A stretch of DNA of 64,000 nt, from assembly GCA_039621445.1 (NCBI GenBank), contig CP154954.1, forward strand, positions 12,394,716 through 12,458,715, in the 5' to 3' direction. Under the pieces are notes generated by a model, which was not told the origin of the DNA, did not search any database, and saw only the letters and a program-made list of their open reading frames with translations. This document shows positions 19,701-64,000 of this stretch, piece after piece. This stretch comes from Euglena gracilis. Taxonomy: Eukaryota. The position numbers were made by a program, and so were the translations under genes. Position 1 is the first letter of the stretch. Each line of letters starts with the position of its first letter.

Positions 19701-22700
19701 ATGGTGATGGGGGAGAATCCTGAATGCCCCCTGGATGCTGGGAGGGGTGTCTGGACCCCCCTTCTTGGCAGGTTCCAAAAAGGAGAAAAAACCTTCCTGC
19801 ACTGCGCACCGGGAATTGGAAAAAAATGTTTTCATTTCGCTCTTGAACAAAATGCGTTTTCCTTTATTTTTTTTTGATATTTGGGTATGTTCCACAAAAA
19901 CAAATATTCGTCATTTGAACTTTATTTTAATCATCATTTTAATGATACAGGAGGGGAGAATCGCAAATGTGTTTTTTTTGCGGTTTTTAACTTTGGCAAA
20001 GTTTGCATGTTTTGCGTCTTTTTTTCTGTGTGTTTTTCTTCTGTTTATTTTTTGATTTCCGGTGTAATTTTTTTGGACTTAGAAAAACTTCATTTTTTTT
20101 TGCCGAAAATTGCGCATTTTGAATCAGCATTTTCCCAAAACTTAACCAATAATATACATCAAAACTTAATCAAAATTTTGAAATTTGCTCAAAGTTTTTT
20201 GCTCAATTTGCATTTTTTTTTGCACAATTTGCATTTTTTTGCTGATATTTGTTGTGTTAATTTTAATTTATTTTTTTGTTAAAAATGCGAAACATTGTCT
20301 CAAATATGGCTCATGTTGCACAATTTTTAATGTTGCAGAATGAATTTTTTCCCCAAAAGGGGGTGATAATTCTTCCTCTCGACCAGAAAATATACATCCC
20401 GGGGGGAGCTTCTGCAGGAATTTACATGCTATTTGCATTTTTGGCGTTTATTTTGTGTTTATTTTATGTTTTTTTGCGTCCCGTTTTCCGAGGGTCCATG
20501 TTTTGTTCCCCTCCCTGACTTATAATGATATTATCGATACTATTGTTGAAGTTTCCTTGAGGAATTACCTTGGTGCATTTATTGTTTTTTTTTGCATTGC
20601 ATTTCCAATTACATGAAGTCTCTGGCACTTGGCACACCGTACTATGACCAGCACCTGTGGTGGTGCTGGGAGGACGGGTCGAGTCATAGGTCTCATTTCC
20701 AGACCTTCTTCCCCAGCCTGCTGCCTGGGAATTATCCTTTAAAAACGTAGCGGAAAAAAAGACAATGAAGGAAACTGTCTCTGAAAGTTGGTGGTAAGGG
20801 TGCTCTTTCTCTCCCCAAATGGGGTATATTTGTGCCAAACTAGGGACTTTCTCGGCGTGGCAACACCGGACTCATGCCGCGGTTACCGCCTCCCCCTGGG
20901 GTCCATGCGATCGTCGCCCACAATCCATTCGTCCAGGGGTCTATCCTCCTGCCGCGTCGCGCGTGACTGCTGCTGTCAGTGGCAGGCCTTCACGTCAGGT
21001 GCTGCCCCTTTCCAACTCTCCTTCATTACCGCAAGGCGCGTTATATATTCTAGGGGTCTTCTGACAGGATTGGCTTGGTTTGAACGCAACCTGCATTTTC
21101 ACCTGCACATGTTCACGGATACTCACAAAAGTCGTTGGTTGGTTGATGGGATGAATGGATGGATGGATGTTTCGGATGGATGCTGAAATTTTTTGATTGT
21201 GTAGCGTTGCACTCATGATTTTACCAACACATTATTTGTGGTACTGCACTAATTGTCATGTTGGAAAGTCCACCCCTGGGTCTCCCGGAAAATTTTCACC
21301 CTGGGTGTGCACTCATTGATTTGCTTGGTGACAGCTTCTAGAGGGGGGAGGTAGGTGTGCTCTGTACTCTAAGCCCTCCCCCAAGTTTCAACGCAGACCG
21401 TTTGTGTTTAGATTTTATAGCGAAACATATATTCTCCGTTTGTGAAAGGGAGCACATAGAAGACGGTCCGCGAAACAGGGATGCACGGTGGTGTTTGTGG
21501 GTGTTCTTTCTTGAAAATCATACCACATAAAACATCTATTTTAACAATCATACCACTCGCCACCATTCGAGGAACGTTTGCGGACCCGTTTCTGCACAGA
21601 TTTTCCAGGTCAAGGCTCACTTCAGTCTTTAAAACCATTTCACCCTTTTGCTTGATCATATTACTGACCGCGATGGGGCAGACCCCACCCAGGGGGTTTT
21701 TCTTTGGACCCAGAACCGGACCAAAAGTGGCCCCCAAAGTGGGTCCGGTCCCCCTGGAGGCCCCCCGAGGTCCCCCAGGGCACCCCTGAGGCGGGTGGGT
21801 GCCTCCTCCTCCCTCCCCCAGTGCTTGAGAACCTCTGACTCCAGCATGGCCAGGGGTTTTCTTGAGCCGGAGGGGACCCTACCCCCTGGGGGGTCAAGCC
21901 AGCCAGCACGTTTTTTTTCTAACAAGCACCTCCAAGCTGGGCTGACCCCCCCCCCCTCCCAGGGGTTTGTTGAAATAACGTTTGGGCTGGACCAAATTTT
22001 TGGAAACAGCGGCTAAAAATGGGCAAAAATGGCTTTTTTGGGTGGTTTTTGGGATTTTTCCACCTAAATTTGGCTGAAAAATCCCAACCCTCCTGGATTT
22101 GGACTTTTTTGGGGCATTTTGGCAGCTGTCGGGTCCAGCTGCCATTCGGGCTCGAACCTCCCTGGAACACCCACCCCCCAGGGGGGGTCCAGCCAGGACC
22201 TTTTTTCCAGCCGGCCTGCGGGACCCCCCCCCCCCCAGGGTCTTTAAGAACACCCCTGAGCATGGCAGCTGACACTGTAGAGCACAGATGTATGGTCGAT
22301 GCTCCGTCTCAAAGCCTGGACTGGAAGAGAGCTGGCCAGGCAATGCCATTGCTTTTGATCTCCCTCTCCCCGTGCACTGCATCCAGAAGGGCGCCATGAC
22401 ACTTTGCTCCGACGCTATTCCCTTCGCCCGCCCTTTGTCTAATTTTCGCAGCCATGGGTGGGTTGGTTTATATATGCAATGTATGTATGTATGTATGTAT
22501 GTATGTATGTATGTATGTATGTATGTATGTATGTATGTATGTATGTATGTATGTATGTATGTATGTATGTATGTATGTATGTATGTATGTATGTATGTAT
22601 GTATGTATGTATGTATGCATGTATGTATGTATGTATGTATGTATGTATGTATGTATGTATGTATGTATGTCTGTATGTATGTATGTATGTATGTATGTAT

Positions 22701-63266: not shown

Positions 63267-64000
63267 CTTCCCACACATCCCCCAGAGGTACGCTTGAGCC
63301 CTGTGGGGGGCCTCTCAGATCTGGTTGGGTCGAGCAACGACATGAAACAGGGCAGTGTCCATGGGTTTGGTGGCAATTCGTGCCCCAAGGCAAATGCGAC
63401 CGGATTGACACGAGAGGGCACCCCTTCAGGTCGACCCTTCCACCACCCTTTGCACTTCACCCAACGCCAAATCCATCCACTGCGCCCTGACCGAATCGGA
63501 AGCACGCGAGCTCCGTCGGTGTCCAATTGCCCGATGCCGCCGTCGGCAGCCACATTCCAAGTTGCTGCATCCCCTCCCTTGGCTGCACCCACTTATCGGG
63601 CCACAAATTGAAGGTCGCCGAAGGTCACAGGCCACCCCAAAAAGTTTGATTCCCCCCCCCCCCAGTTTAAAGCCCCACCTGAGGGTTTTGAAATCCTGTC
63701 CAAATTTGAAGCCGGGGGGCTTTTGTATTTGGGGGGTATTTAGGCATGCCGCGATTTCCAGTGCGTATCTTCTTCCCACGGGGGGGGGGGAGTGACCTTT
63801 GGGTGATAAGGTGGGCATCACAGAGGAGGGGGACAACTGCCCGCCCCGAAGTGGTCCAGAGCTCCTGGGCACCCCAAGACCCTTCCCAAAGGATCAGGTT
63901 TTTTTCTTCGACGCTCCAGCCGAAGGAAGCTCAGGGTTCTGGCATATTTCTACCAAATAATCATCCGTGTTATCTTTTTGGTCGATTTTGAAGGGTGAAC

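Follow-up and report, generated by a model that had tools for sequence, protein, structure and literature searches.

The origin of euglenid nonconventional introns and the mechanism of their removal have been an open question since the 1990s. [quoted passage not shown] A MITE origin of these introns was proposed in 2014 (PMC3935182), and the original prediction for this stretch rightly treated the transposon origin as an existing hypothesis. Its own addition is less new than stated, given that a 2024 review by the same group describes the CAG/CTG motifs at positions +4 to +6 and -8 to -6 as 'TIR' (terminal inverted repeat) and the junction repeats as 'TSD-like' (PMC11282704). According to the 2014 paper, no transposable elements had yet been identified in euglenid genomes at that time (PMC3935182). 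The joint reading favoured here, with a probability of roughly 0.55, is that the window contains members of a MITE superfamily with 8-bp TSDs and CAG...CTG ends, which carries the published splicing code and would be a source of euglenid nonconventional introns. If so, the elements would represent the missing free-living form of the nonconventional intron. The only recognisable gene of the window encodes a sirtuin.

Five insertions with exact 8-bp TSDs had been predicted, and all five were recovered with exact coordinates by direct reading and by a script, the two TSD copies being identical at 8/8 positions in each case:

21851-22258 (M1), 408 bp, with the ends CAGGGGT...ACCCCTG and the TSD AGCATGGC at 21843-21850 and 22259-22266
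31580-31897 (M2, family A; 31572..31905 with TSDs), 318 bp, with the ends CAGGCTTGTGCTTA...TAAGCACAAGCATG and the TSD GACCCAAG
39171-39466 (M3, family A; 39163..39474 with TSDs), 296 bp, with the TSD GTCCCCTC
59307-59606 (M4; 59299..59614 with TSDs), 300 bp, with the ends CAGGGGTTTTTTTA...TAAAAAAACCCCTG and the TSD ATTGGGTT
62828-63266 (M5; 62820..63274 with TSDs), 439 bp, with the perfect 17-bp TIR CAGGCTTTTGCTTAAGG and the TSD CTTCCCAC

The termini also read as predicted: all five elements start with CAGG, M1, M4 and M5 end in CCTG, and the family A pair M2 and M3 ends in CATG. Their lengths range from 296 to 439 bp, and their TIRs match at 10-12 of 12 positions. M2 and M3 share 88% identity, and this homology begins exactly at CAGG and stops exactly at CATG, the 30-nt flanks being unrelated.

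An unbiased scan, which did not require CAG, searched for exact 8-mers on both flanks, TIRs with at least 10/12 matches and element lengths of 80-3000 bp. It yielded 108 matches in the window, 99 of which are located in microsatellite tracts (24.0-24.2 and 29.1-30.0 kb); the other nine comprise the five predicted elements, one further element (C7), one tandem-repeat artefact and two G/C runs. The candidate at 16598-17077 was rejected as a MITE, being part of a tandem array (16540-17290, unit of about 383 bp) that mimics a TIR/TSD element in the scan, and the stretches 36788-38831 and 44672-46942 were rejected as elements, their 'TIRs' being G/C runs. In 60 windows simulated with a Markov-1 model, only 13 matches were found in total (0.22 per window), none of which starts with CAG; the low-complexity filter used for this comparison removed M3 and both G/C-run matches from the observed list. 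A second scan, seeded on TIRs starting with CA, returned 308 pairs in the window. Their 8-nt flank matches have a chance-like peak at 1-2 and a tail of 17 pairs at 6/8 or more, which consists of nine microsatellite pairs, two pairs without a CAG start and six CAG...CTG elements (M1, M4, M5, N1, N2 and N3). The observation of five TSD-flanked elements is real and statistically solid.

Altogether, the number of such TIR elements in the window is at least ten: seven have CAG...CTG ends, two CAG...ATG and one CGT...ATG. Beyond the five listed above, they are:

36427-36905 (C7; 36419..36913 with TSDs), 479 bp, with the ends CGTACATC...GATGTATG, that is CGT...ATG, and the exact 8-bp TSD GTTTGGGA
46571-46680 (N1; 46563..46688 with TSDs), 110 bp, CAG...CTG with a perfect terminal stem and the TSD CGCTGTCC/CACTGTCC, matching at 7/8 positions
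33882-34246 (N2), 365 bp, an older element with the ends CAGGCTTC...GAAGCCTG and a flank match of 6/8
6314-6549 (N3), 236 bp, an older element with the ends CAGAG...CTCTG and a flank match of 6/8
46874-47161 (N4), minus strand, a diverged full-length copy of the M4 family with the ends CAGGGG...CCACTG and a decayed TSD

N4 shares 72% identity with M4 over 309 columns, with unrelated flanks, and the interior of C7 is 59% like that of M5. Such similarities of 59-72% between the interiors of families with different termini are due to common internal blocks, which occur in M1-M5, C7 and N2-N4 and consist of CnGn palindromes, a GGCGCC-centred palindrome (CGGCGCCGAAGGCGCC-like) and AAAAATGG/CCATTTTT motifs. 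The elements are short and non-coding, possess TIRs and TSDs, and occur in more than one copy at unrelated sites. They are non-autonomous DNA transposons (MITEs) belonging to several families of one superfamily, and within the window they are simply transposon insertions. A Pfam scan of the 431 open reading frames of at least 62 amino acids in the window found no family above the cut-off and no transposase domain, a scan that misses short exons and failed to detect exon 2 of the sirtuin gene; the sub-threshold matches were Pex24p, Zip, Methyltransf_13 and SIR2. The 24-mer terminus of family A had no match in a metagenome scan. Just upstream of M1, the sequence at 21760-21790 (...GGCACCCCTG followed by AGGCGGG) resembles the 3' end of another copy of the CAGGGG...CCCCTG family, and M1 may have inserted beside or inside older copies.

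What would connect these transposons to introns is the splicing code of Euglena, 5'-N3CDG-/-CH'GN5-6|R, which was worked out with knock-in experiments on E. gracilis (Nomura et al. 2025, PMC12501133). [quoted passage not shown] Furthermore, five fully synthetic 50-bp introns carrying just these features were spliced like the wild type (PMC12501133). It had been pointed out that the unpaired flanks of 3 and 5 nt add up to exactly one TSD. This arithmetic is correct, and the spacing agrees with the experimentally defined code (PMC12501133). When x nt before and y nt after the element are removed, the empty sites of M1-M5 are restored solely if x + y = 8, which includes the combination (3,5); cutting 3 nt ahead of CAG and 5 nt behind CTG takes out the element together with exactly one TSD copy. 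On paper, the seamless removal that had been predicted thus gives back the pre-insertion sequence in all five cases.

The CDG/CH'G motif is present in both orientations in seven of the nine elements that start with CAG (M1, M4, M5 and N1-N4), and the stems of these seven have 9-12 pairs out of 12. RNA folding of each element with 15-nt flanks predicted a terminal-pair probability of about 1 for M1, M4, M5, N1 and C7; in the plus-strand terminal stem of M1, all but one of the first 13 positions have a probability of at least 0.93, position 8 being unpaired. M1, M4, M5 and the four older copies carry the cis-signals that the knock-ins defined as sufficient, namely N3, a CDG paired with CH'G, a stem of about 12 bp and N5. 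Given this sufficiency, splicing is predicted for those CAG...CTG copies that are transcribed. The purine required at the start of the downstream exon falls on TSD position 6. In plus orientation, M1 and M4 (both G) and M2 (A) fit this rule, and in minus orientation all five elements M1-M5 have a purine at this position, the sites themselves not being exons. If a copy of this kind inserted into an exon, it would be expected to leave the mRNA scarlessly in every case where a purine occupies TSD position 6, and the CAG...CTG superfamily with its 8-bp TSDs could in this way act as a source of euglenid nonconventional introns. The 3/5 register would then owe its existence to the reading frame, which is restored by no cuts other than those adding up to the TSD length.

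Several published observations on introns bear on this proposal. Intron 4 of gapC in E. agilis ACOI 323 is the youngest documented nonconventional intron and is absent from other strains; direct repeats of eight nucleotides are found at the junctions of this intron (Milanowski et al. 2016, PMC4770533), precisely as would be expected if a young intron had arrived with an 8-bp TSD. The authors themselves read these repeats as the result of double-strand-break repair, by analogy with intron gains in Daphnia (PMC4770533), and this counts against a transposon origin. New nonconventional introns would then arise by break repair with short duplications, and the MITEs would be a separate matter. Break repair, however, leaves the fixed-register CAG...CTG inverted ends of the inserted DNA unexplained, and 8-bp duplications around CAG...CTG inverted repeats recur in the window at unrelated sites and in multi-copy families, a signature of transposition; it is considered a very improbable explanation. 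At 5' and 3' junctions alike, Y/R is the usual configuration (Guminska et al. 2018, PMC6221363), which the TSD model would account for, since both junctions would correspond to TSD positions 5|6. In E. agilis, 69.1% of the nonconventional introns are 'slidable' via junction repeats (PMC12501133), compared with about 44% calculated here for random junction bases, and this excess is weak support for the TSD model. A literature search brought up no paper in which the spacers are said to add up to 8 bp or a superfamily is assigned, supplementary junction tables being outside this search, and none on free CAG...CTG MITE families with 8-bp TSDs in Euglena.

Going one step further, the register of the code itself might mirror, at the RNA level, a transposon with 8-bp TSDs. 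Exons would be seeded by an active CAG...CTG MITE superfamily with ready-made introns that can be removed without a scar in either orientation, and an excision machinery would have evolved or been recruited specifically to neutralise this superfamily. This extension is tentative and is given slightly less than an even chance. If true, it would explain the share of about 70% that nonconventional introns have among the introns of Euglena, as well as the occurrence of Y|R at both junctions.

The proposal has to be weighed against a more modest explanation, according to which the elements are ordinary MITEs without any causal link to nonconventional introns and match the code by coincidence, since CAG...CTG ends are common among DNA transposons and 8 bp is a frequent TSD length. 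The match of 3 + 5 to 8 is a single post hoc numerical coincidence, and three of the ten elements lack the motif. Several observations from the window weigh against the intron proposal. M2 and M3 fail the motif in both orientations, as their 3' end is ATG instead of CTG and CAG...ATG breaks the G:C pair of the motif; together with C7 (CGT...ATG), they show that the ends of the superfamily are not uniformly code-compliant. In plus orientation, the exon-start position is a pyrimidine in M3 (C) and M5 (C). The outer three pairs of M2 did not form in the RNA folding, and the termini of the older elements N2, N3 and N4 fold poorly, with low pair probabilities. The splicing of these copies is a prediction from their sequence. 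Mapping of proteins to the window placed no element in a demonstrable exon: all ten lie outside exons, the copies being intergenic, upstream of the sirtuin gene or in a conventional intron of it, and the open reading frames across the ten empty sites contain nothing convincingly coding. The flanks of M1 and M4, each with a C-rich tract and CAG about 30 nt upstream, look exon-like, an impression that found no support.

The sirtuin gene provides the only nonconventional intron of the window. The gene was recognised by a weak SIR2 match and then by a transcript-derived protein, and its exons were placed by tblastn and by reading of the junctions:

59992-62155, continuing beyond 64000, plus strand, SIRT4-like sirtuin gene
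59992-60159, plus strand, exon 1
61131-61235, plus strand, exon 2
about 61477-61533, plus strand, exon 3
61534-62059, plus strand, nonconventional intron 3 in the Val (GTG) reading; the protein has Met (ATG)
about 62060-62155, plus strand, exon 4

Translated exon 1 has 100% identity with a transcript-derived Euglena gracilis protein of 288 aa (P0003), which identifies the window as E. gracilis or a very close relative. The four exons differ from this protein at two sites, with Val/Met where exons 3 and 4 join and Ala/Thr within HAAAGS, which suggests an allele or a paralogue; a second protein search revealed no other near-identical Euglena form for the Val/Met junction codon. The next-best relatives in the database are bacterial sirtuins (Thermoanaerobaculia/Acidobacteria), with about 55% identity. 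Introns 1 and 2 are of the GT-AG type and have C-rich tracts. Intron 4, which opens with GT at 62156, extends past M5 over more than 1.8 kb; residues 142-288 were not found in the window, and a QMRPD match near 63.4 kb was judged a chance match. Because of this GT start and the location of residues 142-288 outside the window, M5 is nested in conventional intron 4. About 390 bp separate the end of M4 from the downstream start codon at 59992.

In the Val reading, intron 3 has Y|R at both junctions, 11 of 12 pairs between positions +4 to +15 and -6 to -17, and the canonical 3/5 register, which is lost in the Met reading. Its motif is CAA...GTG and not CAG...CTG; the third pair is an A.G mismatch, after which comes a GC-rich stem of 9 bp. 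Intron 3 would therefore depart, in a natural setting, from the strict CDG/CH'G rule. The expectations that nonconventional introns retain TSD remnants at their junctions and resemble the MITEs fail in this single intron on which they were checked: its junction 8-mers match at 2/8 positions in the Val reading and at 3/8 in the Met reading, and it resembles none of the MITE families of the window. Intron 3 thus provides no support for a TSD origin, which fits the explanation by ordinary MITEs; it may simply be old. The explanation by ordinary MITEs is nevertheless rated unlikely, as three independent lines meet at the number eight, namely the spacer sum of the code (PMC12501133), the TSDs of the window and the gapC repeats (PMC4770533), and as synthetic introns that carry just the features of the code are spliced (PMC12501133). 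The reading of the elements as ready-made nonconventional introns, put forward in the original prediction, is accordingly coherent but unproven: it agrees with the published code and with one published young intron and applies to M1, M4 and M5, but it fails for two of the five elements, M2 and M3.

A further difficulty concerns the length of the duplication. In M2-M5 and C7, the left TSD is preceded by a G, and since this G is identical to the last base of the element, the repeat can also be read as 9 bp. Four of the five predicted elements can be read in this way, which is a further point against a TSD of precisely 8 bp; M1 and N1 exclude the 9-bp reading, and among M1-M5 only M1 is strictly 8 bp. 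A G at this position in at least four of five elements has a binomial probability of about 0.016 at p = 0.25, a post hoc estimate. The G precedes the left TSD in five of seven tabulated elements and has no matching C after the right TSD. This one-sided G suggests a 9-bp duplication whose ends are asymmetric, or else a target preference on one side. The arithmetic of the scarless cut holds under the 8-bp and the 9-bp parse alike.

The superfamily to which the elements belong is a separate question. hAT elements have the terminus pattern YARNG and the target consensus nTnnnnAn. The pattern is matched by CAGGG (M1, M4 and N4) and CAGAG (N3) and not by CAGGC (M2, M3, M5 and N2) or CAGAC (N1); in the TSDs of M1-M5, T is found at position 2 in three of five and A at position 7 in two of five. 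The elements resemble hAT MITEs in their 8-bp TSDs, their short TIRs starting with CAG, their lack of coding capacity and their length of a few hundred base pairs. The label 'hAT-like' that had been given to them is unproven and is based on the TSD length and the CAG start; the target consensus is not evident, and no transposase partner is present in the window. Alternatively, they might be Merlin MITEs or belong to another superfamily with 8-bp TSDs such as P, in which case the intron link may or may not hold. Two Merlin families, F1 and F2, are documented in E. gracilis, the same host, with 8-bp TSDs and near-perfect TIRs (PMC8101967). Merlin TSDs are 8 or 9 bp long, and the repeats of four of the five elements allow both lengths, the literature search found no paper linking Euglena with hAT elements, and the hAT target consensus is not evident in the TSDs of M1-M5. 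However, Merlin TIRs have a conserved terminal 5'-GG (PMC8101967), whereas the TSDs define 5'-CA termini in all five elements, with 5'-CAGG at the end, and no open reading frame with a DDE_Tnp_IS1595 domain is present in the window; moreover, the CAGGG of M1, M4 and N4 fits the hAT pattern. A Merlin or other non-hAT origin is rather unlikely, and hAT is somewhat favoured on the basis of TSD length and CAG ends, the superfamily not being settled.

With euglenid nonconventional introns, the MITEs of the window share the CAG/CTG pairing, which closes a terminal stem of at least 12 bp, and, if the TSD bases are equated with the spacers, the unpaired flanks of 3 + 5 nt (PMC12501133). The size range of these introns overlaps the 110-480 bp of the elements. 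Unlike the introns, the elements are introns of no demonstrable transcript, have intact 8-bp repeats and are multi-copy, and two of the five have ATG in place of CTG. That a transposon can be spliced as a de novo intron is known from maize Ds1, an example of the hAT superfamily (Giroux et al. 1994, as cited in PMC3935182); Ds is removed by the spliceosome via cryptic sites, whereas a stem-guided register is predicted for the elements described here. The introners of Micromonas and Aureococcus and the MITE-derived non-canonical introns of Amoebophrya, Polarella and Fritillaria are DNA transposons as well, and the element leaves the mRNA together with one TSD copy, so that insertions into exons are harmless (PMC11282704). 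They differ in depending on the U2 spliceosome, which is sometimes relaxed, and the TSDs of Amoebophrya are 3-5 nt long compared with 8 bp here (PMC11282704); the elements of the window are predicted to be removed by a stem-reading machinery. Confirmation would make Euglena an example of introner-like intron gain via a non-spliceosomal code. The MITE hypothesis leads to countable predictions, namely repeats of 8 nt at junctions placed in the 3/5 register, young introns that cluster by family and splicing of exonic copies at -3/+5, and the elements are natural substrates for the existing knock-in assay.

The window contains several other repeats. In conventional intron 1 of the sirtuin gene, a repeat-like element at 60277-60720 has inverted arms of a C-run and a G-run (AAACCCCCCCCAAATAAGACC / GGTCTTATTTTTGGGGGGGGTTT) and internal motifs of the AAAATGG type. 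A 9/18-nt tandem repeat (CAGATGCTGGACAAGATG...) at 12855-13340 lies inside an open frame of 303 aa (12561-13469, plus strand), whose QMLDKM-type repeats have no Pfam match. The long microsatellites are:

4918-5134, (CACCA)n
11840-12230, (CA)n with CACG variants
22371-22950, (TGTA)n
29150-29970, (TA/CA/CGTG)n
35560-36080, (TG)n
53971-54132, (ATG)n

The (TGTA)n tract starts about 110 bp past M1.

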